Source: a virus
Reading direction: 5' to 3' (one strand)
DNA length: 64,000 nucleotides
Virus record (IMG/VR): IMGVR_UViG_3300038856_000064
Location: 96,001 to 160,000 of that record
Part shown: positions 2,001 through 53,495 of the stretch, piece after piece
Layout: each line of letters begins with the position of its first letter
Numbering within the stretch: position 1 is the first letter of the stretch
Program-made: the position numbers and the translations under genes
Notes under the pieces: generated by a model
What the model was told of the DNA's origin: nothing
The model's input: only the letters and a program-made list of their open reading frames with translations
Databases searched by the model: none

Positions 2001-4187
2001 CTAAACGTCTAAGATCACCGATCTCCCACCAAAAATGCCATCGACAGGGGCAACCTGATTAATATGCGTAATAATAAAAGATGTGTCCATTTTTGCAAAA
2101 TAAACACTACCATCAAATGTCGAAAAATAAAGATAATTAAGACCCGTGGCCTCATCCCAAACTGCTGGACCGAAACTGTTAACGTCAGAAGCCTCAAGAG
2201 GTAAGCTCGGATCAAATGATATTACCGCAGAGGATGCTGGTGATATTGACATTTTATTTGGGATTGTAACTTGGTTGTTCGTTGTAACAGCTAGACGAAC
2301 TTGCCATGTTGGAAAGGAGCCAATAACATATGTGGTTGAGCTATACGATGTAGACGGAACCTGTTGTGTACTTTTAGAAGCTGTGCTAATCGAAGCAAAA
2401 CGATTTACTAGTGGAAATGAACCTGGCTCTCCCCACTGGAAGTATACCAGTCCGTTCACATTTACAAAACCATAGTTCTGCTTCCTCAAAAAGAAAAACG
2501 AAAAAATATTATTCACAGAATAGGTATTCTGAAAATACTTAGTCTGCTGAGTAGTAAAGGTAGGGGACTCTGGTGGATCAAGCTCAATCCAAATAAAGTT
2601 TCCTTCACTATCTGTTCCCTGCCTATATGTATGTTTTTCGTAAGTAATCGTAGCGGCTACCTTGTTGCCCCCGGCAGCGCGATCACCACCTGGTGATACT
2701 ATAGAGTCAATATACCCCCACTGAATGTAACGCTTACGCCAAATAACCTGGTCTGCCGCCATAATGTCACCAACGTCAAAGTTGGTACTTGGGGCTGATC
2801 CAAAAACACTTGGTCGCGGTTCAAGAGCGGAAGTTGAAAAGATAGACCAGTTTACGGGATAAAATCTATTATTTGTCGTAGCCCACTCAAATCTTGAAGA
2901 ATCTCCACCAGCTAATGGAGTAGTAACCCTATCATAAAAATAAACATCATTACCATTAGCATACCCTAATCTACCAGTGATATCAACGCCCCTAGAGTTT
3001 ACTGCACTATCCACAAAGTGACCAAAAACCCTTCTTCCGTTTATCAAGCTACGACCAACTGGTAAGCCATTCGGATTGACTTCATTTAGGTTATATAGTA
3101 AACGATCAACGATATGGACTCCACGATGAGCTATTCCATTCGGATCTATTCCACTTGTTGCATGATAATTACCTGGCCATGTTTGAATAAGCTGTCCGCT
3201 AGTGCCGGCATCAGAGACATCTAGCATATAAACATTATCACTAGAAAGTCCCGCGGGAATATCATATATAGCCTGGCGCCCTGATGCGTTGACACATCCA
3301 CTATTTTGTGTTTCGTAATATAAATTGAGCTGATCTCCTGCGGGAAATCTAGCCCATGGTATATTTTGAACAAAGTCCCCCTCGGTTGCTCCAGTCTGTC
3401 CTGAGCCAGTTAATAGCTTGAGCGTCGTTCCCTCTACTAATGCATCTCCAGTTATCAATGCACCACCAGAAGATGATACATCTAGACCAAGAAGACCATA
3501 CTTTTCTTTATCGAGATCGGTAAATGTAGGAAGTGATCCGTTTGGCAACGCTGCTGGAAAGATTGGCCTGATAGGCAAGTTGGATGTGCCAACTGCTGAA
3601 GCGGTAGGACGTGTAAACGGCTGCCACTGCACTTCATCCATATCAATGTCTTGAAATTGTAATGCACCTAACTCGACTGTCTCACCTGGTATAATTGTGC
3701 TAGATGGTGCTACCGGCACCGTATTGGTCGGAGCAGGATGAACGTAATTTAAGTCCGAGGTTCCAGACGCACTCGTATTATCCAAATCATAAACCGCTCG
3801 ATTACGACGCATATGTGCTTTAAAAAATTCATCAGACGAATACTGAGAATCAGAAGCATGAAGTGCGGTTACGTCCTCTAATAAATCGCGAAGATCTAAA
3901 ATGTAGTCTGCGTAATGTGGCGTGGCTTGTTCGTATCCACTAGCCGAAAGAGTCGGCTCAATATTAATCGATAGCGCCGCATCCTTGTTGATGTAAAGTT
4001 CAATTGGTGAGTCAACTGGATGCGATGCTATCGGAGTGAATAATCTCTTATCTAGAAGCAGTCCAAATGCGGGAATAGAAAAATAGCGCCCCTCATACCC
4101 AACGCGATCCGACTCATCTAGTCGGAATGGTTCACGAGCATAAGGGTACGGACGATAAAGAAATTCAAATCCGCTTACGCCTGTCAT
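2001..4187 (-). CDS. Putative tail/baseplate protein
   Basis: 728-aa ORF, S/G/T/P-rich, overlaps stop of the LamG gene. Confidence 0.65.
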   Translation of the reverse strand: MTGVSGFEFLYRPYPYAREPFRLDESDRVGYEGRYFSIPAFGLLLDKRLFTPIASHPVDSPIELYINKDAALSINIEPTLSASGYEQATPHYADYILDLRDLLEDVTALHASDSQYSSDEFFKAHMRRNRAVYDLDNTSASGTSDLNYVHPAPTNTVPVAPSSTIIPGETVELGALQFQDIDMDEVQWQPFTRPTASAVGTSNLPIRPIFPAALPNGSLPTFTDLDKEKYGLLGLDVSSSGGALITGDALVEGTTLKLLTGSGQTGATEGDFVQNIPWARFPAGDQLNLYYETQNSGCVNASGRQAIYDIPAGLSSDNVYMLDVSDAGTSGQLIQTWPGNYHATSGIDPNGIAHRGVHIVDRLLYNLNEVNPNGLPVGRSLINGRRVFGHFVDSAVNSRGVDITGRLGYANGNDVYFYDRVTTPLAGGDSSRFEWATTNNRFYPVNWSIFSTSALEPRPSVFGSAPSTNFDVGDIMAADQVIWRKRYIQWGYIDSIVSPGGDRAAGGNKVAATITYEKHTYRQGTDSEGNFIWIELDPPESPTFTTQQTKYFQNTYSVNNIFSFFFLRKQNYGFVNVNGLVYFQWGEPGSFPLVNRFASISTASKSTQQVPSTSYSSTTYVIGSFPTWQVRLAVTTNNQVTIPNKMSISPASSAVISFDPSLPLEASDVNSFGPAVWDEATGLNYLYFSTFDGSVYFAKMDTSFIITHINQVAPVDGIFGGRSVILDV

Positions 4188-27424: not shown

Positions 27425-28954
27425 TTATCGAATAATAAATTCCCACCTCTGCTTTGGTGGAACTATAACCTTAATAAGACCCAGAGAATTCGCATAATTT
27501 GACTCAGACTGGCCAGCAGGAACTCTACACTTACTTTTGTGATATTCGTTACCCTCTTGATCGATATAGATATAATCGGACCTCATTTTATTATCAACTA
27601 GAATAAAATTACAGGCTTTATAGAGGGTGCCGCCATGATGGCGAGGGTCGTGCCAACTTACTACCTTACCGCGATAACCTGTCTTCTTTAACCATCTTAA
27701 GGACCTGGCAACCATCCATGAGGTCGTATTATTGTATGGGTGCGGCAATCTAACTCTGTCAAAAATAGCGCAACGATTGAGACAAACCGACTTTTCATGA
27801 GGATTGGCGACACCGCCAAATGTCACGACACCACAAAGTATATCGTTATAGTAAAACCCAAGACGATGCTTGTCACGTCCAGACGCCGACTTGAGATAAT
27901 GTACGCGACGCAGAAAATCGTCTGCTATAACCTTATTTATTTCCCTAACCTCAAATCTATAGTTATGCTTTATTCGTAAGCAAAGCTTATCCAATACATC
28001 ATCCTTGCTGGTCAATATTATGTAGTTGAATTGATTGTCTTTATAGTATTGAATTTTCTCGGCAAACTTATCTGGCCGCTTGCGCGACTCACCAAGACCG
28101 TCATACTCGACCCATAGATCTTGATTTGGTAAGTAAAAGTCACAAGTCCATTTACGATCTTCACAAACCCTCTTATGCGGTTCGTAATCAATAAAATTCT
28201 GGTACAACAAATCAGCCAATCGCTTCTCTTCTATGGAGTCATAAAATGTATTATCATTACCTAGTTGCCTTTTATCGACATCGATATTAGCCAACTCAAG
28301 TATTTCCTTCCAGCTCTTGTTTGGGAAACGCTTATAATAACACGAATTATTAATATTCTGATTAGAAGATAACTCCTCGTGTTTTAAACGACCTAGTAAC
28401 TCATTGTCTGTTTTCTTAACGCCAGATCGTGATACCTCAAGCCCCGCCTCCCTCAATGCATTTGGCCAACTACCGAATTTTCTACGTATTGTTTCAGCAC
28501 TATACAATGTATTCGCCTGTTTATATTTTTCAATAGTTAGTATTCCGTCACACTCCTTCGATGCACTTATTAGAGCTTCAACTAATTCCTTTTTTGTTGA
28601 GCCATATACCCTATTTGGCTTAATCCCAGCAATTTGAAGTCCCTTAACCCAACTACCGAAATGCCTTTCTACTGCCGTAAGCTTTACCCCTCCCTCTACC
28701 CTAAATAAGTCTGAATTATTGCTACCAGTTTTATCATAGAAGTCTCTAATGGCTTGTATTACCTCCTCATCTGTATAATTTTTTCTAGATGTAGGTAACC
28801 CTGCCTCTACCACAGCATTATTCCAACTACCAAACTCTTTATTCACTATGAAGCGACTATATTTAGTATCAGCTTCATCATATAGCTTTCGAGTAATTTT
28901 ACCATGCTGACTAAAAACACCTTTAATGTCCGATATTATTTCTTGTTTACTCAT
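27425..28954 (-). CDS. Free-standing homing-endonuclease-like protein: FGSW repeats + PD-(D/E)XK/Vsr-like nuclease + Mom-like GNAT domain
   Basis: Repeats FGSWNNAVVEAGL / FGSWVKGLQIAGI / FGSWPNALREAGL; DFYLPNQDLWVEYDG; ADDFLRRVHYL...LCGVVTFG...HGGTLYKACNF; AT-rich. Confidence 0.7.
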   Translation of the reverse strand: MSKQEIISDIKGVFSQHGKITRKLYDEADTKYSRFIVNKEFGSWNNAVVEAGLPTSRKNYTDEEVIQAIRDFYDKTGSNNSDLFRVEGGVKLTAVERHFGSWVKGLQIAGIKPNRVYGSTKKELVEALISASKECDGILTIEKYKQANTLYSAETIRRKFGSWPNALREAGLEVSRSGVKKTDNELLGRLKHEELSSNQNINNSCYYKRFPNKSWKEILELANIDVDKRQLGNDNTFYDSIEEKRLADLLYQNFIDYEPHKRVCEDRKWTCDFYLPNQDLWVEYDGLGESRKRPDKFAEKIQYYKDNQFNYIILTSKDDVLDKLCLRIKHNYRFEVREINKVIADDFLRRVHYLKSASGRDKHRLGFYYNDILCGVVTFGGVANPHEKSVCLNRCAIFDRVRLPHPYNNTTSWMVARSLRWLKKTGYRGKVVSWHDPRHHGGTLYKACNFILVDNKMRSDYIYIDQEGNEYHKSKCRVPAGQSESNYANSLGLIKVIVPPKQRWEFIIR

Positions 28955-35560: not shown

Positions 35561-35760
35561 TTGATGGGACGTTCTACCTTCCATCCATCAGGATAACGCT
35601 CATCCCATTCTCTTTTTAGGCGATCTGATTGTTCTCTTGAGTAGATGATGGCTCTTTTAACCGGCTCACTCTCCGGATGTGGCGGCAACTTATTTCTCGC
35701 GCACAACAAATAACACTCAAGAATGTATGGATAATTTGGCTCGCTGTCTGCATTCATCAA
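35557..35760 (-). CDS. Hypothetical protein
   Basis: 67 aa between terminase and portal. Confidence 0.55.
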   Translation of the reverse strand: MMNADSEPNYPYILECYLLCARNKLPPHPESEPVKRAIIYSREQSDRLKREWDERYPDGWKVERPIN

Positions 35761-38700
35761 TAAATAACTCCTCCCTTTCGATTCATGGGGGTGTACCCCA
35801 TCCCTCGACGCGGGGCATTCTTCAAAATATCTTGTGGTGTCCCACCGTAGGCTTTACCCCAAGATTTCTCATGTCCGTGTCCCTTAATAACTCTGGCTGC
35901 ATGTGCGGCAAGTAGTAAGGCACTATAACGATCTCGACGACGGACATCTAGCCCATCAGGCTGATCACTCAATTTCTGTAATCCAAAACCTTCTGTACCC
36001 TTCTCTGTTACCGTCTGGACAATCGTGCATAATTCATTAGTAAGCTCTTGCATTTCTTTATAGGCACCTAAAGTAATAGGATCTCCATCATCATTTTCCG
36101 TACCATAGAGAAGGTTGTTAATATGCTCGACACACGCGATATGTTCATTATCCTCATAATCAAATTCGGGCACGTCTAATAGTCTTTTTGCATGCTTTTC
36201 CATCACAATATCATCGTCGAGACGTCCAGGAAATATGACATTTTTCATAATAAAGTCACGCTTTAAATTATGATTTGCTGGAACAGCCCAGGTATGGAAG
36301 TTGACCATTTCAAGGATGCGGCGAGCATTTGGGATTGCCTTATAATCATCGCTTGGCTCAATTTCAATAATCGGCTGCTCGCCCTCCCTTAAGTATTTGG
36401 CGCTGGCTAACATTTCTTGAACGGTGTCGCCGCCACCACCTTTATCGCAAGCTATATAAGTAATGTTGGGGAACCTAGCTAATGCATCCTTAATACGATC
36501 AATACTCACTTCCCATTTAGACTTATTCCAACTATCACAATAAACCACTTGGGCTGTTGTACCCACAAGCTTAAGGATGACTAAGCCGAAATTGTCATTC
36601 CAACGAGCAGGGTCGAGTCCCATAACATACTGAAACCCCGGTTCGCCAAACAGTTCATAATGAAATTCCTCAGGGTTTCCTTTACCTGGAGAGGCTGCAT
36701 CAATAATAGAACGTGGGAAAAATCCATTAGTGTCTTTGCTAAATTTACATTCATATTCATGTCCAAAAATAACTGGATCCATAATTGCCTTATGGTTTGC
36801 TACGATATCACTATCTAAGAACCCCTCGGGCATTGCGTGATATGGTAAACTAAATACGGCATACTCGTGCCAAATCTTTTTCCAACGCTCCAGCATCTCA
36901 TCCGTAACACTTATAGTGCCGTCACGACTCTGGCGACGTAACCCCTCTTTGATGACCTGGGGATTCCCATTAGACTTAGCAAAAATATTATAAGCCTCGT
37001 AACGACGAAAGAAGTGACTAAACTGATAGGTCGCAGTTCCTGATAATACTAGTTGGTTACCTCCACCTCGGCGCTCTTCTTCGATCTTGCCTATAATCTC
37101 TTCGTTCGCACCAAGCTTGCGTAAACGCGCTATAAACTCTTGGACAATGACAGCTTCTGAGGGGTCAGCCTTAACAGAAAGGAACGGACCAATTGCTGTG
37201 TCGAATACCTGATCATCAATAGACGCAACTTCATCACAAACCAGAGTAGTATTATGATTCTTTATACCATTCCCGATAAAAGAATGTGACTCTGGAATTT
37301 CAAAATCATAAAGAATATGCTTGCCATCTAGCTTTTCAACACTCCTTATAACCTTTTCTGTTTTTTCTTTACAAAACCTAATATCTAAATCTGCCTTTTT
37401 GTATACCTCAACAAAACGACTTGGTCGAATGGTATTAATAAACTTCATCATCTGCACACCGTTAATACGTAGCATGTATTGCGGATGATCACTTAACTTA
37501 CTTGACCTACTCGTCCTACTACACATAATACCTAGCTTTAGTAATAGAACCTGAACATCCTTTCCTAGTTGCTCACTAGCGGTGTAATAAGAAATTCCTA
37601 AATTGTTTTCTCTAGTCTTATCCTTATATAGATAGGCAGTCCCATCTCCATCAAATAATCCAGTTAGGAATGAAATAACCTCATCTCTTGAACCATTCAA
37701 AATCGCAGCAGGAATCTTTTTAAATCGTGCAGTAGAATAACCTAGGCCGATTTCACTCTCTAGCCATTGACGTTGTTTCAGATTACCAAAATGAATTTCA
37801 TACGACGGTTTGCTTGTCCACCCCCTAGGGTCTTCTCGTGGCGGACAATAATACCTACTAGCTTTGCCAAATTTATCTATTGCAATTTGCTCAACTCTAT
37901 CACAGAATTCTCCTACAGCATTCTTAACAGAAATTCTATACTTATTAGAGCAACATCCTTCAGAAATTACAGCCCCAAGCAACCAAGCTAGATCTACTCC
38001 AAGTTTTTCTTCACTATTAAACTTACCGCCCAACTCTAGTGGCAAAAAATCCTTACTTGGTTGTAGCTTAACAGCATCCTTCCACCCCTTAGTTGTCCAC
38101 AAACGATGAATATCAGAACATACAACCTCATATCCACATTCTGTTGTTATTTTATACGCATCGATAGGACATGTCTTAACGAATTTACTAGGTGCAGCAA
38201 ACTTACCATTACCATAATGAAGTGTTATATCTTCAGGATTATCGACTATGTCTTTAATTCTACGCAAGCCATTATTAGTTTCTACTATAGTTGTTGGCTC
38301 TACGCATGCACGCATTCCTCGGACCTTAGAGCCATCTCCTACGGGAATTCCGGTGATCTCAGTATTATGCCCAACCTTCAAATAAACCTTATCAGTAGCA
38401 AATTTAACACCAAAACTATTACCTGGATGAAACTTGCGGATCGTCTCCTCAATAATTGGACTACTCTTAATAATCTCATCAATATACTGAAAAGTAAACT
38501 TAGCCTGACGAAAACCACCAGAGACGATCACTACCTTTGTCCCTGGAACAAGAAGGCATTTCAAAATACAATAAACCGCAAGCATATATGTTTTGCCAGC
38601 CCCACGACAAGCTAACACCATAGGAAACTTCTTTGCCCACATCATCTGAAGCATCACACTTTGGAAAGGTAATAATCGAAGTGGATCGCCGAACTTATTC

Positions 38701-38840
38701 CGAAATACAAGCTCAACAAATTTAGTCAGACTAATATCGGACACACGATTAACTATATACGGATATTCTTTTTGGTCGTGTATATAGAGACTGTCACGAA
38801 TTTTAGTTTCGTCAGTAATTATTTTAGTTTGGACAGACAT
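35757..38840 (-). CDS. terL: Terminase large subunit (intein-containing)
   Basis: Walker A ACRGAGKT, Walker B LVCDE, nuclease YVMGLDPARWND and DRYSAL. Confidence 0.92.
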   Translation of the reverse strand: MSVQTKIITDETKIRDSLYIHDQKEYPYIVNRVSDISLTKFVELVFRNKFGDPLRLLPFQSVMLQMMWAKKFPMVLACRGAGKTYMLAVYCILKCLLVPGTKVVIVSGGFRQAKFTFQYIDEIIKSSPIIEETIRKFHPGNSFGVKFATDKVYLKVGHNTEITGIPVGDGSKVRGMRACVEPTTIVETNNGLRRIKDIVDNPEDITLHYGNGKFAAPSKFVKTCPIDAYKITTECGYEVVCSDIHRLWTTKGWKDAVKLQPSKDFLPLELGGKFNSEEKLGVDLAWLLGAVISEGCCSNKYRISVKNAVGEFCDRVEQIAIDKFGKASRYYCPPREDPRGWTSKPSYEIHFGNLKQRQWLESEIGLGYSTARFKKIPAAILNGSRDEVISFLTGLFDGDGTAYLYKDKTRENNLGISYYTASEQLGKDVQVLLLKLGIMCSRTSRSSKLSDHPQYMLRINGVQMMKFINTIRPSRFVEVYKKADLDIRFCKEKTEKVIRSVEKLDGKHILYDFEIPESHSFIGNGIKNHNTTLVCDEVASIDDQVFDTAIGPFLSVKADPSEAVIVQEFIARLRKLGANEEIIGKIEEERRGGGNQLVLSGTATYQFSHFFRRYEAYNIFAKSNGNPQVIKEGLRRQSRDGTISVTDEMLERWKKIWHEYAVFSLPYHAMPEGFLDSDIVANHKAIMDPVIFGHEYECKFSKDTNGFFPRSIIDAASPGKGNPEEFHYELFGEPGFQYVMGLDPARWNDNFGLVILKLVGTTAQVVYCDSWNKSKWEVSIDRIKDALARFPNITYIACDKGGGGDTVQEMLASAKYLREGEQPIIEIEPSDDYKAIPNARRILEMVNFHTWAVPANHNLKRDFIMKNVIFPGRLDDDIVMEKHAKRLLDVPEFDYEDNEHIACVEHINNLLYGTENDDGDPITLGAYKEMQELTNELCTIVQTVTEKGTEGFGLQKLSDQPDGLDVRRRDRYSALLLAAHAARVIKGHGHEKSWGKAYGGTPQDILKNAPRRGMGYTPMNRKGGVIY
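37251..38306 (-). mobile_element. Intein with LAGLIDADG endonuclease (352 aa)
   Basis: RA|CVEPTTIVET...; block B CSDIHRLWT; LLGAVISEG and FLTGLFDGDG; ends YDFEIPESHSFIGNGIKNHN|T. Confidence 0.93.
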
Positions 38841-47028: not shown

Positions 47029-47056
47029 TTGACATCTAGAAAGTTTATGGTATACT
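47029..47056 (+). promoter_or_regulatory. Sigma70-like early promoter, leaderless
   Basis: TTGACA-N16-TATACT with TG extension; ATG at 47062. Confidence 0.8.
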
Positions 47057-47061
47057 GTCAT

Positions 47062-47424
47062 ATGGACATCATCGAATTCCACGGCATCGGAATCGAATTC
47101 ACCTACTACGGAGCCGAACGCTACGGAGCCGAACGCGGGCGCCCCACGTACGCGACCCTCGACGACTACTACGTCTCAAATTGGGACGATTTCGCCGCAC
47201 ATTGGAGTGCAACCCGCTGGTTCGGGCCGACTCTCCAGGCGATGCTCGACACCATCGTTGACGAGTTCGCCGATAAGATCGAACAGGAGGCAATCGACTG
47301 CTCGCAGGAGCCCGAGCCCGAGTACGACCCGTACGAAGACAGCGACTACGACTACGACGATGGTCCGTCATGTACGGGTGGAGACTACTGGCGGAATGAC
47401 GCTGGTGAGTGGAGACTCGGATAA
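47062..47424 (+). CDS. Acidic hypothetical early protein
   Basis: Start moved to ATG just after the -10 box. Confidence 0.7.
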   Translation: MDIIEFHGIGIEFTYYGAERYGAERGRPTYATLDDYYVSNWDDFAAHWSATRWFGPTLQAMLDTIVDEFADKIEQEAIDCSQEPEPEYDPYEDSDYDYDDGPSCTGGDYWRNDAGEWRLG

Positions 47425-47546
47425 TCCGGACATCTAGAGATGCGCGCGGAACACCGCGCCCTCTCGGGCTTGCGGGCGACATATCGGGCGAATATTTGAC
47501 TTCTAAAATTGACTACTAGCAGGTTTTGTGATATCCTTTCACTGAA

Positions 47547-47798
47547 ATGAGCAGAACCAGACGCAAGATTCCCCCGGAATGGTCAGATGCTGAGTGGATC
47601 GATGGTTACGATCCCGCTCGCGACCACGACAGTTACGGGCGACATATCCCGAACTACTTGAAGCGATATATCGGGATCGGATCGGACAACTACGGGTGTG
47701 CCTGTTGCTTTCCGGGTCCGAAGTCTCGTAAAGAGAAGATTCGGTCCGCCAAACGCAAGGAAAAGCGGGAAGCAATGAAACAGATTCTCGACATCTAG
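47547..47798 (+). CDS. Hypothetical basic protein
   Basis: TTGACT-N17-TATCCT promoter at 47509-47537. Confidence 0.65.
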   Translation: MSRTRRKIPPEWSDAEWIDGYDPARDHDSYGRHIPNYLKRYIGIGSDNYGCACCFPGPKSRKEKIRSAKRKEKREAMKQILDI

Positions 47799-47821
47799 AA
47801 AAGATTGTGATATACTTCAGC

Positions 47822-48025
47822 ATGAACGCCACGAAACAGATCGACTGGAATGCGGTCGAAAAACGTGCCGCCGAAATGTCGACGCTTTCGCTCCGCTTCG
47901 CCCTAGTGGACATCCACGAAACTCTCCCCCATGCCGACGATCTCGATAGACTGGACGGTGGCAATCGCGGTGGATACTATCGCGATGAGGCTTCGATCTA
48001 CTGGCGTGAATTGAAAAAACGGTAA
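47822..48025 (+). CDS. Hypothetical early protein, leaderless
   Basis: TCGACA-N17-TATACT at 47788-47816. Confidence 0.65.
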   Translation: MNATKQIDWNAVEKRAAEMSTLSLRFALVDIHETLPHADDLDRLDGGNRGGYYRDEASIYWRELKKR

Positions 48026-48067
48026 GATTCCATTTGACATCTAGATGGTCTGAGGTATCATACTTCT

Positions 48068-48247
48068 ATGACGAACGATACACATAACGGCCTGACCTTC
48101 AAGCAATGGCTTGCGAAGGTCGACGAGATCCTGACTCGCGAAATCGGAATCTCGCATGCAGACATCGCCCGTCACCTAGCAAAAGCAGAGGTACAAGAGC
48201 GTTTCGGATACGAAGCCGATGCGATCGACGATTGCGACTTCGACTAG
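48068..48247 (+). CDS. 59-aa hypothetical protein, leaderless (below track cutoff)
   Basis: TTGACA-N16-TATCAT at 48034-48061; MTNDTHNGLTFKQWLAKVD... Confidence 0.7.
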   Translation: MTNDTHNGLTFKQWLAKVDEILTREIGISHADIARHLAKAEVQERFGYEADAIDDCDFD

Positions 48248-48275
48248 GAACATCGGGTAGATAATTCTGCCCACT

Positions 48276-48308
48276 AGCCTCGGGGAGAAGGGACCCCTGG
48301 GGCTTTTT
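48276..48308 (+). terminator. Terminator
   Basis: AGCCTCGGGG/CCCCTGGGGCT + T run. Confidence 0.7.
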
Positions 48309-48404
48309 GTGTACAGCGCGACAACTCGCGCTTGCCTCCGACATATCGCGAAAGTATTTGACTGCTAAATTTGACTTCTGGGGAAGTTTGTGATACACTT
48401 AGAT

Positions 48405-48776
48405 ATGGAAAAGCTCACAGCGCAAAACGTCGCGGACATCGCCTATCGCTACTATGCGAATGGTGGAAAATCTGGACACACTCCGGGAGACCGTTCGCCT
48501 GATGGGTGCACGTATTTCCGCTCCGATGGCGGTCGGTGTGCGATCGGTGCGGTACTGGATCACTTGGGGTATACTAAAAAGGATCTGGGCGATCACAATG
48601 AGCTGACTACGGTCTCGATGCTTTTCGACGAACTACCCGGTATCCGCGAAAAATTCAGTTGCGATGTCGAATTTCTGGAAAGTCTCCAGCGAGCGCACGA
48701 CGGATCAGAACGCGACGATGAAATTCCGGAACGAATCCGCTGGACTTGTCGCGATCACGGAGTATACTTGAGATAA
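48405..48776 (+). CDS. Hypothetical phage protein, leaderless
   Basis: TTGACT-N17-TACACT at 48371-48399; CTY...RCAIG...LQRAHD. Confidence 0.7.
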   Translation: MEKLTAQNVADIAYRYYANGGKSGHTPGDRSPDGCTYFRSDGGRCAIGAVLDHLGYTKKDLGDHNELTTVSMLFDELPGIREKFSCDVEFLESLQRAHDGSERDDEIPERIRWTCRDHGVYLR

Positions 48777-48824
48777 CTTCAAAGCACCTAGAGGCGGAAC
48801 TAGGCTAAATCCGCATTTCTTTTA

Positions 48825-48937
48825 GGGGTAGATAGGTTTTTGACATCTAGAATACGGTTTGGATACCAGCCGCGAAAAGCCCAACGCAAAAACGCGGTTT
48901 GTCTAGATGGACCCGAGTTCAATTCTCGGCTACTCCA
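48825..48937 (+). ncRNA. Mini-tmRNA 1 (tRNA-like domain only, 113 nt)
   Basis: Acceptor GGGGUAG/CUACUCC-A with G3.U70; stemless D-loop AUAGGUUUUUGA; helix CAUCUAGA/UCUAGAUG; GAC linker; T-arm CCGAG-UUCAAUU-CUCGG. Confidence 0.85.
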
Positions 48938-48944
48938 TAAATTC

Positions 48945-49047
48945 GTTAGAGCGCGACATATTGGAATAGTAAGGTTCGCACAAACTTACTAGGACAATGG
49001 TGCGGGGCGGTGTGCGCCGCAAGTAGGTTCGATTCCTACCTCTAACA
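48945..49047 (+). ncRNA. tRNA-like RNA with acceptor stem and T-arm but non-tRNA core
   Basis: GUUAGAG/CUCUAAC-A; T-arm GUAGG-UUCGAUU-CCUAC; internal hairpin UAGUAAG/CUUACUA. Confidence 0.75.
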
Positions 49048-49059
49048 TAAATTCGGGAA

Positions 49060-49155
49060 GTGTTGAAATAACGACTAGTGGTACCAACCGCTATGGTGTA
49101 AAGTCTTATAAGGGCTGAGCACACCCGAAACTTCTTACACGTTAGCTGTCAACAC
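49060..49155 (+). ncRNA. Structured RNA element of unknown class
   Basis: Closing stems GUGUUGA/UCAACAC and UAACG/CGUUA enclosing further hairpins. Confidence 0.5.
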
Positions 49156-49163
49156 AATTTGAG

Positions 49164-49215
49164 AGCCCTGACCCGAGTAGCTTAGAAATAGGCTTCTGGA
49201 GTTAGGGCTTTTTTT
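49164..49215 (+). terminator. Terminator of first RNA cluster
   Basis: AGCCCTGAC/GTTAGGGCT + T run. Confidence 0.75.
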
Positions 49216-49362
49216 ATCTGATACACCCGAGCCTCTCGGGCATGCTTCCGACATATCGAGAAAAGGTTTGACTTTCTGACACCTAGATAAGAAGTGAGAG
49301 TATACTTTCAACATGACCGAACACAGGAACTCATCGACGAACTGTGGTGAGTGGAATTCAGC

Positions 49363-49390
49363 TTGACAACTAGAACAACTAGGGTATACT
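49363..49390 (+). promoter_or_regulatory. Sigma70-like promoter for second RNA cluster
   Basis: TTGACA-N16-TATACT; followed by 15-codon ORF MRKIKAPTGRRKRAR (49396-49443). Confidence 0.8.
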
Positions 49391-49480
49391 TCTCCATGCG
49401 AAAGATCAAAGCGCCTACTGGCCGTAGGAAAAGGGCGCGATAACATAAATACCTCCTATGCGGCATACCGGGTTTCCGGT

Positions 49481-49529
49481 ACCCCGACGAAAAGAGTAGC
49501 CAGATATATCGGGGTTTGATAACTCTGGC
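49481..49529 (+). ncRNA. H-type pseudoknot
   Basis: ACCCCGA(49481)/UCGGGGU(49509) interleaved with GCCAGA(49499)/UCUGGC(49524). Confidence 0.55.
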
Positions 49530-49534
49530 AATAA

Positions 49535-49602
49535 GGGAGTGACAGGTTTAGGCAACTAGTGAATACTATGTTGTAACGTGGGTTCGATTCCCACCACTTC
49601 CA
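49535..49602 (+). ncRNA. Mini-tmRNA 2 (tRNA-like domain only, 68 nt)
   Basis: GGGAGUG/CACUUCC-A with G3.U70; D-loop ACAGGUUUAG; helix GCAAC-UAGU/ACUA-U-GUUGU; AAC linker; T-arm GUGGG-UUCGAUU-CCCAC. Confidence 0.85.
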
Positions 49603-49682
49603 TAAAGCCCTAGGTGGACGCAAGTCGCATACTAGGTTGATACTGCCGGTTTGGGTTATACCGGAGGAAGGTTCAACCTAGG

Positions 49683-49731
49683 GTGGTAACCTTGACCGGA
49701 CCAAGCTAGATGGTCAAAATAACCACTTTTT
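49683..49731 (+). terminator. Terminator-like hairpin ending second RNA cluster
   Basis: GTGGT..TTGACC/GGTCAA..ACCAC + TTTTT. Confidence 0.55.
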
Positions 49732-49917
49732 ACCTCAGGTGATACACCCGATCCTCTCTGCCATGCCGCGCGCATATCGCAACTATATCAGACACCTCCT
49801 CCCCTCCTCAAGTATATCGCAACCCTGGAGAAAAGTCAAGTATTATTTTGAGAACATCTAGGTGCTTTTCCACCCTGCTTTTCTTGCCATCTTCGACAAG
49901 TCATGTATACTTAGGGC

Positions 49918-50196
49918 ATGAGCAAGAACAACACGAACATCGGGAAGTTTCTCACCGATCTGGCAAGCAAGGCATCTCCGCTGAACGCGCAAGCTATCGC
50001 GGACTTGCAAGACAAGATGCGCGCAGAGAAGGTAGTGGAATTGGAGCGCAGGATCCGTCACGTTCTGAAATGCATCAACACCGAAGTCACCGAACTGCGT
50101 ACCCTCCGCAAGCGTGAGGCGGAGACCAAAAAGCGCATCAAGGATTTGGAGAAGCTCGCGAACGACATCGTCACCGGAAAGGACATCGACGACTAG
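49918..50196 (+). CDS. Coiled-coil early protein, leaderless
   Basis: TTGCCA-N16-TATACT at 49884-49911; 92 aa. Confidence 0.75.
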   Translation: MSKNNTNIGKFLTDLASKASPLNAQAIADLQDKMRAEKVVELERRIRHVLKCINTEVTELRTLRKREAETKKRIKDLEKLANDIVTGKDIDD

Positions 50197-50198
50197 CC

Positions 50199-50261
50199 TG
50201 TTATACTGACGAGATCCGGGCAAAAGGATCGAAACTAGGCATAGCCTAGTCTATAATGCCT
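50199..50261 (+). ncRNA. Hammerhead ribozyme, type I
   Basis: Stem I UGUUAUA/UAUAAUG, core CUGACGA, stem II GAUCC/GGAUC, GAAA, stem III CUAGGC/GCCUAG, GUC site at 50249-50251. Confidence 0.92.
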
Positions 50262-50398
50262 ATAAAATGGGGGTTTGACCAAGTGCTAAGTGCCAAAATG
50301 GTTGAATCCCGTGCCAGTGACATTATCGTTCAATAGTGTCCAGTGCAAAAGCAGACAACTAGAGTCTCGGGTGCCAGTCACCTGAGGCTCTTTCGTTT
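50252..50398 (+). ncRNA. Putative ribozyme-released small RNA with repeated GUGC motifs
   Basis: Three hairpins, GUGC at 50283, 50290, 50311, 50343, 50371; last hairpin is terminator-like. Confidence 0.55.
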
Positions 50399-50715
50399 AT
50401 ACACCGAAACAACTCGCGCTTGCCTGCCAAACATATTTTATATCAGCGAGACTCGCCCCTCCTAAGTATATCATAAGATAGGGGAATGTCAAGAACAACT
50501 AGAATAAATATTAGCACGATACCCTACCGCGCACGTACGCGCGAATATCACAAGATCCGCAATTTGTCAAGCTCGTAAGAGATATTTTCTCAGAATGATT
50601 TCTAGGTGATTTTGGATCCATTCACTTGCTTTTCGTTCGAACTAGGGTATATTGATTGTGGCTAGCGCAACGGAGCGCATAAGCAAACACAAAACCCGAA
50701 CACGAGGATACAAGA

Positions 50716-51261
50716 ATGGACGAACAGAACATCACCACCGACGACGTCGAAAACTTCGATGTCACCGAACAGAACGACGACAGGCAACGACGCGAGCGGA
50801 GAACGCCAGCTCAGATTATCGCCGATTTGGAAGCCGAGATTGCGGCACGAAAGGCCGCTCTGGACGGCAAGATCGATACGAGTACCGAGCACGGTCTCGG
50901 CAAGGCTCTGCGGAACGCACGACGCAAGCGCAATACCGCGCTGAAGGCCGCACAGGTCATCGTCGAAGGAATCCCCGCCAGCGACGGTAAGGGCTGGACT
51001 CGCAAACCGATGTCCGAGACGATCAAAAACACCGAAAAGCGCTTGGAGTCGCAACGCGAGACTCTGAACCGAGCGGAGTACCAGCGCGCCGATCTGCCGA
51101 CGTGGATCGCTCGCCTGGACTCTCTCCTGGAAGCCCTCGAAAGGGGCGACGACGTCGAATTCCCGCGCGATATGCCGCCCCTCGAAAATGAGAAGGACCG
51201 CTCTGCCGAGGAGCACGAGGCGGCTTTCTACGCGAAGAGTCAGGAAGGCGACGACGCCTGA
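50716..51261 (+). CDS. Charged helical early protein
   Basis: 181 aa, GAGGA RBS, promoter TTGCTT-N16-TATATT at 50626, terminator 51270-51305. Confidence 0.75.
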   Translation: MDEQNITTDDVENFDVTEQNDDRQRRERRTPAQIIADLEAEIAARKAALDGKIDTSTEHGLGKALRNARRKRNTALKAAQVIVEGIPASDGKGWTRKPMSETIKNTEKRLESQRETLNRAEYQRADLPTWIARLDSLLEALERGDDVEFPRDMPPLENEKDRSAEEHEAAFYAKSQEGDDA

Positions 51262-51269
51262 TCCCCTGG

Positions 51270-51305
51270 GGGAGTCTCTATAAGGGACTCCCATTCTCTT
51301 TTTTT
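51270..51305 (+). terminator. Terminator
   Basis: GGGAGTCTC/GGGACTCCC + T run. Confidence 0.75.
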
Positions 51306-51322
51306 GTGTGGTATACTTAGGT

Positions 51323-51628
51323 ATGCAAACGACAACTAGACAACGGACCGTATCGCGAATCGGCTTACACCGCGCGACGCAATTCCTCTGGAATGAAACG
51401 CAAGGGCTGATCTTTTCGTGCTACTTTCGCAAGAAGGACGGCACGATGCGCGAGATGGTCTGCCGACGCGGTGTCAAAAAGCATTTACGCGGCGGATCGC
51501 TCCCCTACGACGCAAAGGCAAACAATCTACTGCCAGTGTTCGATATGACTCTCGGCGAGTACCGAACGGTAAATCTCGCCACTCTGGTTTCCTTCAATTT
51601 CGGTGACGAAACTTTCGTTGTAATGTAG
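51323..51628 (+). CDS. WYL-like/SH3 beta-barrel phage protein, leaderless
   Basis: FSCYFRKKDGTMREM...VFDMTLGEYRTVNL; extended -10 TATACT at 51312. Confidence 0.65.
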   Translation: MQTTTRQRTVSRIGLHRATQFLWNETQGLIFSCYFRKKDGTMREMVCRRGVKKHLRGGSLPYDAKANNLLPVFDMTLGEYRTVNLATLVSFNFGDETFVVM

Positions 51629-51660
51629 CGCCCTCATTCTATCATCCGAGAATGCTGGTG

Positions 51661-51712
51661 TGCCGGAGGCGGTTGTTCTTTCCAGAGATCATCCCCGTCT
51701 CCGGCATTTTTT
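51661..51712 (+). terminator. Terminator
   Basis: TGCCGGAGGCGG/CCGTCTCCGGCA + TTTTTT. Confidence 0.8.
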
Positions 51713-51822
51713 GTTTGAAACAGCGCGACAACTCGCGCTATGCCTGCCACATATCGTCCTATAATGAGACACGTTTTGACCACCTAATTTGACATCTAGA
51801 TGATTTTGGGGTATACTAAATC

Positions 51823-52164
51823 ATGCAAGATAAGAACAAATGGCATCGGCGCACTACGGCGTTTATGGGACAAGTCGCAAAGGAACTCGGTATCCCGAGA
51901 AACAAACGCACAATCCACTCAAATAAAGGTGGAAATGCGGTAGGTGGCGAAGTGACGATGAGCGCACCGGAATTCGGTGTATACGTTCACCTAACGTGCC
52001 CAGTCAATTCCTACGGTATGGAAGATCGGATCGGAAGCAACTACGTACGACGAGCAACGGCAGACGATCCCTACGGTACCGCGATCGACAAACAAAACCA
52101 TTTTCTCACTACTCAACTAAACCCGACAGAGATAGCTGATTTTTGTAGAAAGATCGTCACCTAG
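51823..52164 (+). CDS. Hypothetical early protein, leaderless
   Basis: TTGACA-N17-TATACT at 51789-51817. Confidence 0.75.
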   Translation: MQDKNKWHRRTTAFMGQVAKELGIPRNKRTIHSNKGGNAVGGEVTMSAPEFGVYVHLTCPVNSYGMEDRIGSNYVRRATADDPYGTAIDKQNHFLTTQLNPTEIADFCRKIVT

Positions 52165-52187
52165 ATAATCTTGGGGTATACTTACGC

Positions 52188-52379
52188 ATGACTACCCTTT
52201 ACACTCTAGTAGAAATTCGTCCGAACGGACACGAAACCGAGCTTTACCTCGGAACGAAACTGAAGGACGGGACCCGAACCAAGTATACGGTAGATGGTAA
52301 TATTGCCTACCAGACCCAAAAGAAGTGGGAAGAGGCAAATCCAAACTACCGATACGAAGTTAGACTAATGAACATCTAG
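52188..52379 (+). CDS. Hypothetical early protein, leaderless
   Basis: TATACT at 52177, ATG 5 nt later. Confidence 0.65.
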   Translation: MTTLYTLVEIRPNGHETELYLGTKLKDGTRTKYTVDGNIAYQTQKKWEEANPNYRYEVRLMNI

Positions 52380-52386
52380 AGGAATC

Positions 52387-52851
52387 ATGACAGAACGCGT
52401 ACAAGCTGCCAGGAAGATCACGCACGACACTTTGGCCGAATACGATCTATACGATCGGGGTTGGCGATTCAAGCTAACCCGCGGCAAGAACACTCTTGGA
52501 TGGTGCAACTATAAGGATAAGACGATCGGCATTTCGTCTCACCTTATCGAGAACGGCACGATCGAGGAAATCGCAAACACGATCATTCACGAAATTGCCC
52601 ACGCCAGAACTCCCGGCGAGAATCACGGATGGAAGTGGCGAGCAGTCGCTAGGGAAATGGGTCTGAAAAATCCGGGTCCATATACGAAAATCTCTTACGA
52701 ACTACCGCATAAATACGAACTTAGGTGCGGTGTTCATGGCACTATCGAAAAGCGCCACCGACGTAGCAAACCCGAAAAACTTGCTAGGATCTATTGCCGA
52801 AAGTGTGGATCTGGCAGTGTCGGAACCCTTAGGCTTGTGGAGGTCAACTAG
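52387..52851 (+). CDS. SprT-like zinc metalloprotease
   Basis: TIIHEIAHA...HGWKW...C-terminal CRKC. Confidence 0.85.
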   Translation: MTERVQAARKITHDTLAEYDLYDRGWRFKLTRGKNTLGWCNYKDKTIGISSHLIENGTIEEIANTIIHEIAHARTPGENHGWKWRAVAREMGLKNPGPYTKISYELPHKYELRCGVHGTIEKRHRRSKPEKLARIYCRKCGSGSVGTLRLVEVN

Positions 52852-53136
52852 ATGGATATCGACGACATTTTTCCCCCTGAAGATCAATGGAAGCGCGAAG
52901 CAGACTTCCGGCACCATATCGAGCAGAAAAATCAAATGGACGATTTACTCTGCGGCGCTATTGATCCGATCAAGGTCGGTGACCGAGTTATGTATCGAGA
53001 GGATACAAGTCTAGGTGCCGGTACAATCATTCACATTGCCCTATCGAGATACCCTTATAGGGTACGATGGGATGACGATAGTTACGTGGATATTGTAGAC
53101 TGGTACTACGGAGACCAACTAATCAAAGCTACGTAA
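52852..53136 (+). CDS. Small SH3/KOW-like protein
   Basis: IKVGDRVMY...GAGTI...YRVRWD. Confidence 0.55.
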   Translation: MDIDDIFPPEDQWKREADFRHHIEQKNQMDDLLCGAIDPIKVGDRVMYREDTSLGAGTIIHIALSRYPYRVRWDDDSYVDIVDWYYGDQLIKAT

Positions 53137-53324
53137 TGAATAGGCGCGAGACACCGCGCCTACTCTGCCTTGCCGCCCACATATCGCCATATATAGCGAA
53201 GCCTGCCCCTCCCTTCTATTATACCACGGGGAATCAGAAAAGCAACTAGAAAATAAGGAAATCTAAGGTCGGGATTCCTAGGTGCTTCACTTGCCATTCT
53301 CAGCATCGTGCGGTATACTTCGAC

Positions 53325-53495
53325 ATGAGCAAAAAGCATTTCGAGGCAATCGCTAAGCTGGTGCGCGAAGCCGATTACTTGACTGACGACCAACAACGTA
53401 TTCTTGCTAATCAGCTCTCTTACGTGCTGGAAAATAGCAATATGTTGTTTGATCCGGAGCGTTTTATCGAGGCAGCGACGACTAAGGACAACTAG
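53325..53495 (+). CDS. 56-aa phage protein (MSKKHFEAIA...FDPERF type), leaderless
   Basis: Below track cutoff; TTGCCA-N17-TATACT at 53291-53319. Confidence 0.75.
   Translation: MSKKHFEAIAKLVREADYLTDDQQRILANQLSYVLENSNMLFDPERFIEAATTKDN

Follow-up and report, generated by a model that had tools for sequence, protein, structure and literature searches.

Hammerhead ribozymes occur in phages, as the sequence-only reading that this analysis follows up had noted, and phage and prophage examples are described in Perreault et al. 2011 (PMC3088659). The acceptance rules of that study call for three helices, with the N1.1-N2.1, N10.1-N11.1 and 15.1-16.1 pairs free of mispairs. Approximately 40% of hammerheads, spread over all three types, use a pseudoknot between stem I and stem II, and disruption of this pseudoknot lowers activity 20- to more than 100-fold (Perreault et al. 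2011, PMC3088659). The roles of bacterial and phage hammerheads are largely unproven.

Bacterial small RNAs derived from 3'UTRs, such as CpxQ and SroC, are freed from their parent mRNAs by RNase E. The locus described here resembles these RNAs in function only, in that the small RNA would share the terminator of the mRNA and would arise by an endonucleolytic cut just past the coding region. In contrast to RNAs of the CpxQ/SroC type, the cut would be the RNA's own and would leave a 5'-OH instead of a 5'-monophosphate.

With the phage and bacterial type I hammerheads that a pseudoknot between stems I and II stabilises (PMC3088659; Rfam RF00163, clan CL00010), the hammerhead of the window, by which we mean the whole 64-kb stretch of viral DNA that was analysed, shares the core, the junction with an open stem I and a potential pairing of loop II with the 3' tail. 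Like the clustered hammerheads of prophages (Perreault et al. 2011, Figure 3), it lies on the sense strand of a phage transcript, immediately 3' of a small gene, and would likewise cut a longer transcript into defined pieces. Unlike those clusters, the unit has no second ribozyme, and it is short and monocistronic, with its own promoter and terminator.

Results

A complete type I hammerhead follows the stop codon of a small early gene

The motif and the gene upstream of it are:

49918..50196, + strand: ORF92, whose 92-aa orphan product is charged and helical, from the ORF list and its translation, with a TAG stop at 50194-96
50199..50261, + strand: type I hammerhead ribozyme, read from the sequence and recovered with a descriptor and a covariance model

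The hammerhead starts 2 nt past the ORF92 stop and has stems of 5 (plus two G-U), 5 and 7 bp. Stem I pairs UUAUA (50201-05) with UAUAA (50252-56), and two extra G-U pairs are possible, out to 50199/50258. The conserved stretch C3-U4-G5-A6-N7-G8-A9 is present as CUGACGA at 50206-12 and is followed by stem II (50213-30), in which GAUCC (50213-17) and GGAUC (50226-30) enclose the 8-nt loop II, GGGCAAAA. G12, A13 and A14 occupy 50231-33 and lead into stem III (50234-50), where ACUAGGC (50234-40) and GCCUAGU (50244-50) form 7 bp around a 3-nt loop, AUA. Stem III opens with the required A15.1-U16.1 pair (A50234-U50250), and position 17, which may be any base other than G, is C50251, the predicted cleavage site. 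The pairs that flank the core (U50252-A50205, G50213-C50230 and A50234-U50250) are all canonical without a mispair, and stems I, II and III contain 5, 5 and 7 Watson-Crick pairs, in line with the helix rules of Perreault et al. 2011. Stems II and III are closed by loops while stem I is open, so that the 5' and 3' ends exit via stem I, which is the type I topology. In sequence and structure, the motif at 50199-50261 thus agrees throughout with the hammerheads accepted in Perreault et al. 2011 (PMC3088659), and each element of the full core and three stems that had been proposed right after the TAG of 49918..50196 was recovered in its place.

A descriptor comprising the core, GAAA, U-H and the three stems was scanned over both strands of the window and of the complete viral contig (175,148 bp), and found this one site only. 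When the window was shuffled 300 times with its dinucleotide composition preserved, candidates in which every stem reached 3 bp or more arose at 0.023 per window, and the best of them had 13 total stem pairs versus 19 in the real motif. A chance origin of the motif is excluded.

The hammerhead is typical of a viral family and scores below Rfam gathering

At gathering thresholds, Rfam gave no match anywhere in the window. In a narrow search the full Hammerhead_1 model (RF00163, positions 1-45) was aligned at 21.5 bits against a gathering score of 34 (local E 0.0018); this gathering score is an operational threshold and not a structural feature. The comparison with Rfam hammerhead models that the sequence-only reading had proposed therefore stood in one part, the full-length Hammerhead_1 alignment, and failed in the other, as gathering was missed both by RF00163 and by RAGATH-1 (RF03152). 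The latter gave the best Rfam bit score (23.6 versus a gathering score of 56.3) through alignment of the hammerhead part of the model. Membership in RAGATH-1 was rejected, since inclusion of the extra 5' hairpin drops the score to 20.2, far under gathering.

A search pattern that combined the core with stem II matched three viral contigs (L002, L003 and L004), which carry complete type I hammerheads with the same stem II as the window copy and different stems I and III. Since these clear viral hammerheads were likewise missed by Rfam at E<=1 in a 27.6-kb search, the low Rfam score is not peculiar to the window copy. A broader pattern gave at least 119 viral loci, from which the descriptor extracted 132 non-redundant type I hammerheads, the window copy and 131 others. 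From an alignment (A1) of 60 viral type I hammerheads, with the window copy left out, we built a covariance model (R1). It scored window 50201-50264 at 45.4 bits (E 1.8e-11; R1 E-values are rough, the calibration having been shortened), the single match with E<=10 in the window and the single match in the genome. On 30 held-out matches in 15 untrained loci, R1 gave 18.7-60.5 bits, and half of the scores were no lower than 44.5; as 45.4 bits falls within this range, the window copy is typical of the family. Within A1, 98.3% of cells are paired and 11 of 14 pairs show changes on both sides, a covariation that is partly circular because the members were picked by a pairing descriptor. The structural criteria, the full-length Hammerhead_1 match and the R1 score support the first reading of the element, and we conclude that the motif is a genuine, complete type I hammerhead, of a kind long known from phages. 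Judged from its sequence, it is very probably catalytically active.

Stem I starts within 10 nt of the stop codon of the upstream ORF in 91 of 123 viral family members (ORF calls were crude), so a position directly after a stop codon is the norm for such hammerheads. The surroundings on the other side differ: with the same crude ORF calls, the next same-strand ORF begins a median of 57 nt past the cut in the family, compared with 401 nt, and a terminator between, in the window. The window copy is also single in its genome instead of clustered, and is followed by a terminator-ended ncRNA instead of the next gene. Among the viral loci, clusters of 4-7 type I hammerheads were observed at L014, L019/L065/L118, L030, L032 and L037/L076.

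Loop II can pair with the 3' tail

The suggestion that loop II contacts a downstream UGCCU is plausible. GGGCA in loop II (50218-22) can pair with UGCCU at 50257-61 through four Watson-Crick pairs and one G-U pair, a pseudoknot of the type described in PMC3088659 that recurs in related phage hammerheads. The duplex energy of this 5-bp helix is -5.8 kcal/mol; to judge from permuted controls, one match of this length is not rare by chance alone. Complementarities between loop II and the 3' tail were found in L002, L003 and L004 as well, each with its own sequence (GGAC/GUCC, GGUUCC/GGAACC and GGCU/AGCC), and pseudoknots of at least 5 bp were present in 31 of the 132 non-redundant members versus approximately 10 after permutation of the tails. 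The window copy departs from the family in two respects: its tail helix directly abuts stem I (offset 0) where most members have a spacer of 1-3 nt, and its stem I is all A/U where that of the family usually has four G/C-rich pairs. The 5-bp helix fits the pseudoknot design of the family and, taken alone, is modest evidence.

The hammerhead would divide a short early transcription unit

The gene and ribozyme are bracketed by the following predicted features:

49884..49911, + strand: early promoter of the sigma70 type, TTGCCA-16-TATACT, 10/12 matches in a promoter scan
50252..50398, + strand: predicted 3' cleavage product of approximately 147 nt, with three hairpins behind a 5' end that is A/U-rich and single-stranded
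50361..50391, + strand: intrinsic terminator, the nearest one in a terminator scan, composed of a 13-bp hairpin and a U-tract (UUUCGUUUAU after the hairpin)

Genes lie on the minus strand up to approximately 45.2 kb and on the plus strand from 45.7 kb, which places the hammerhead on the sense strand of the early region. The -10 box of the promoter ends 6 nt ahead of the ORF92 ATG, implying a leaderless mRNA. The arrangement TATACT-N5/6-ATG occurs nine times, that of ORF92 among them, every time on the plus strand between 47.0 and 53.4 kb of the window (47051-53327), versus 1.39 expected, and early genes of this phage therefore appear to be leaderless; promoters of the sigma70 kind are three-fold more frequent in the early region than in shuffles. 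ORF92 is annotated as a gene in three public assemblies, which are identical contigs from one sediment sample, and a search of 5.8 billion proteins returned no homologue besides ORF92 itself.

The primary transcript is predicted to be approximately 481 nt long, and the predicted cut would yield a 334-nt mRNA and a 147-nt RNA. The earlier proposal that cleavage after C50251 would split the mRNA from a downstream RNA fits this layout of promoter, ORF and terminator. The 147-nt RNA has a fold energy of -49.9 kcal/mol (z = -4.67), and none of 200 shuffles was equally stable. It carries GUGCCA three times within 82 nt (50290-50382), and its two copies of GUGCCAGU[C/G]AC are the only plus-strand copies in the 175-kb genome. 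From their sequence, these repeats may represent a binding motif in the 3' product of the ribozyme. Rfam searches matched no known family to the 147-nt RNA. Among viral contigs, the pattern GTGCCAGT-N40-70-GTGCCAGT gave no match resembling the small RNA, the pattern being so loose that about a thousand chance matches are expected.

Predicted folds do not favour the hammerhead within the whole transcript

The five A-U pairs that make up stem I have a duplex energy of approximately +0.4 kcal/mol, and the hammerhead secondary structure (-14.9 to -15.9 kcal/mol) is 1-2 kcal/mol less stable than the local fold of minimum free energy. When the whole transcript is folded at equilibrium, the probability is 0 for stem I and 0.22 for stem III, and 50256-61 forms a competing helix with 50180-86, at the end of ORF92; the minimum free energy fold of the whole transcript does not contain the hammerhead structure. 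We count this whole-transcript fold as weak evidence, as nearest-neighbour folding of this kind ignores tertiary contacts and co-transcriptional folding. Speculatively, ribosomes completing ORF92 would open the competing helix, so that cleavage might be coupled to translation.

The transcription unit lies in an optional cassette

L245, a contig of 5.9 kb from a different sample of the same sediment project (PRJEB19235), aligns collinearly with the window and is 95.6-99.5% identical to it, except for a block of 87.5% identity at window 47791-48945. Comparison of the two delimits the following:

49801..49818, no strand assigned: left copy of an imperfect direct repeat, CCCCUCCU(C)AAGUAUAUC, with the L245 junction inside it (L245 BLAST and junction alignment)
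49809..50463, no strand assigned: optional block of approximately 655 bp (BLAST of L245 against the window and junction alignment A2)
50456..50472, no strand assigned: right copy of the direct repeat (L245 BLAST and junction alignment)

In BLAST alignments L245 jumps from window 49818 to 50456. The block that it passes over contains the promoter, ORF92, the hammerhead, the small RNA, the terminator and one copy of a repeated punctuation element. R1 run on L245 with filters off found no hammerhead, the best score being 7.6 bits, and the 181-aa ORF downstream of the block (50716-51261) has a 96% identical homologue on L245. Since L245 does not have the block of approximately 655 bp, the transcription unit is optional and the element dispensable. 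Assembly collapse in L245 is unlikely because the repeat units are only about 70% alike and because L245 shows point changes throughout. The absence of the block from a near-identical relative is a new observation of the present analysis.

The direct repeat measures 17-18 bp, reading CCCCUCCUCAAGUAUAUC at 49801-18 and lacking the extra C in the copy at 50456-72, and belongs to a repeat unit of approximately 100 nt that punctuates the early region. Copies of this punctuation element, 40-100 nt long, were seen at 47447, 48309, 49219, 49740, 50397 and 53147 (window 47447-53186). Their hairpin stem varies from copy to copy (CCCGAG/CUCGGG versus GCGCGA/UCGCGC), and two copies are followed by a minus-strand promoter-like site (49839-49811 and 50492-50465). 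The punctuation repeats coincide with the break points of the cassette insertion or deletion. Around position 3962-3971, L245 also lacks approximately 100 nt corresponding to window 48946-49045, and it has no aligned counterpart for window 47539-47790; from these gaps, the early ncRNA island is mosaic between near-identical phages.

Searches for further relatives of the cassette returned none. A blastn search with 2.5 kb against 50,697 phage records gave no match, and a search of viral contigs for related loci with ORF92, the 181-aa ORF and a GP88-like ORF found none. No orthologue of the hammerhead was found in these searches: the three public assemblies from the same sample are identical, and the sole close relative is without the cassette. 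A pattern scan of metagenomes gave at least 120 matches, none of them cassette-related among the matches listed. Dominant among those listed is a highly repetitive hammerhead family (L247-L325) that has the stem II GAUCC of the window copy, a very short stem III and a stem I of GGCAA/UUGCC; this family has the look of a genomic repeat rather than of a phage gene.

Discussion

We put at roughly two in three the probability that the window contains a functional type I hammerhead which acts inside a short early phage transcript and frees a structured RNA from the ORF92 mRNA. Under this reading, transcription would begin at or near A49918, the A of the leaderless AUG, and would stop at the terminator near 50398. 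Once the RNA has emerged to about 50261, stems II and III would fold locally, and a pseudoknot of 5 bp, joining loop II to the 3' tail, would hold the weak, all-A/U stem I beside stem II. The core would then catalyse transesterification after C50251. One expected product is the 334-nt ORF92 mRNA, which would finish in the stem III hairpin and carry a 2',3'-cyclic phosphate at its 3' end; the other is the highly structured RNA of about 147 nt, which would begin with a 5'-OH at U50252 and retain the terminator. The ribozyme would thereby do for this RNA the job that RNase E does for small RNAs derived from 3'UTRs, with no host nuclease required.

A more specific version of this reading, which we offer tentatively and which as a whole is possible rather than likely, makes the hammerhead the maturation device of a regulatory or sponge RNA of the phage. 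The product would be a nuclease-resistant RNA of approximately 147 nt with a 5'-OH and repeated GUGCCAGU, freed without RNase E from the 3'UTR of an early leaderless mRNA, and the unit of ORF, ribozyme and small RNA would move in and out of phage genomes as a cassette of about 655 bp by recombination at the punctuation repeats.

The 147 nt could also be a mere 3'UTR with no role of its own, in which case an active hammerhead would serve to define where the ORF92 mRNA ends and how stable it is, by stripping the terminator tail to leave a hairpin and cyclic phosphate or by destabilising the message. Control of mRNA processing and stability was proposed by Perreault et al. (PMC3088659) and would suit the short gaps between same-strand genes in which most family members lie (median of 57 nt from cut to next ORF), and the downstream RNA has neither a relative nor a known family in the searches made. 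We nonetheless consider this unlikely, given that the downstream RNA is unusually stable (z = -4.67) and contains a motif found nowhere else on the plus strand of the genome, and that a terminator intervenes, so the transcript includes no downstream gene. Less probable still is a passenger or decaying ribozyme, brought in by a recombining cassette, slow or inactive in vivo owing to its weak stem I and competing folds, and without adaptive role. The cassette is indeed missing from a relative that is 95-99% identical, the hammerhead is the only one in the genome, and stems I and III are disfavoured in the whole-transcript fold. Set against this, the core shows no decay at any position, stems I-III and the pairing potential for the pseudoknot are preserved, the R1 score is family-typical, and the folding calculation omits tertiary contacts and co-transcriptional folding.

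That there is no ribozyme at all, and that the motif is a chance look-alike laid over DNA signals, is extremely improbable. Promoter-like sequences do overlap it (TCGAAA-17-TATAAT at 50229-57 and AGGACA-16-TATACT at 50180-207), and so does a hairpin on the minus strand that resembles a terminator (50252-32). The promoter-like sequences reach no more than 9-10 matches out of 12, a threshold at which shuffles give 7.0 per 7 kb, and on this ground the overlapping sites were rejected as the origin of the motif. Moreover, such signals leave unexplained 11 fixed core bases and 17 Watson-Crick stem pairs, which no shuffle came near, and they do not explain the R1 E-value.

Phage hammerheads are already well known, and another one alone is an expected find. 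What is unusual about the window hammerhead is only its placement in a small optional early-gene cassette. Present once, in an early cassette that is optional, and placed upstream of a structured RNA that ends at a terminator, the hammerhead is by its context a convenient test case and not a new kind of element. As a test case it is clean: the hammerhead is the only one on the contig, the 481-nt unit has a defined start and end, the predicted product is a structured ncRNA, and near-isogenic genomes that carry or lack the cassette occur naturally. Should the released RNA prove functional, it would be a small RNA made by a ribozyme.

The phage itself is distantly related to cultured phages, its portal protein being 24% identical to Bacillus phage portals. 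Several other features of the window were observed in passing. On the minus strand, the terminase large subunit (35757-38840) is unusually long, at 1026 aa, and includes an internal helicase-like match, and a 508-aa ORF (27425-28954) has Mom-like and HNH/homing-endonuclease matches. Within the early region, ARAGORN reports a permuted tmRNA at 48848-49276, the Rfam tmRNA model scores 42.1 bits (gathering 47) at 49535-49605, and two repeats resembling a T-arm and acceptor lie at 49023 and 49578.
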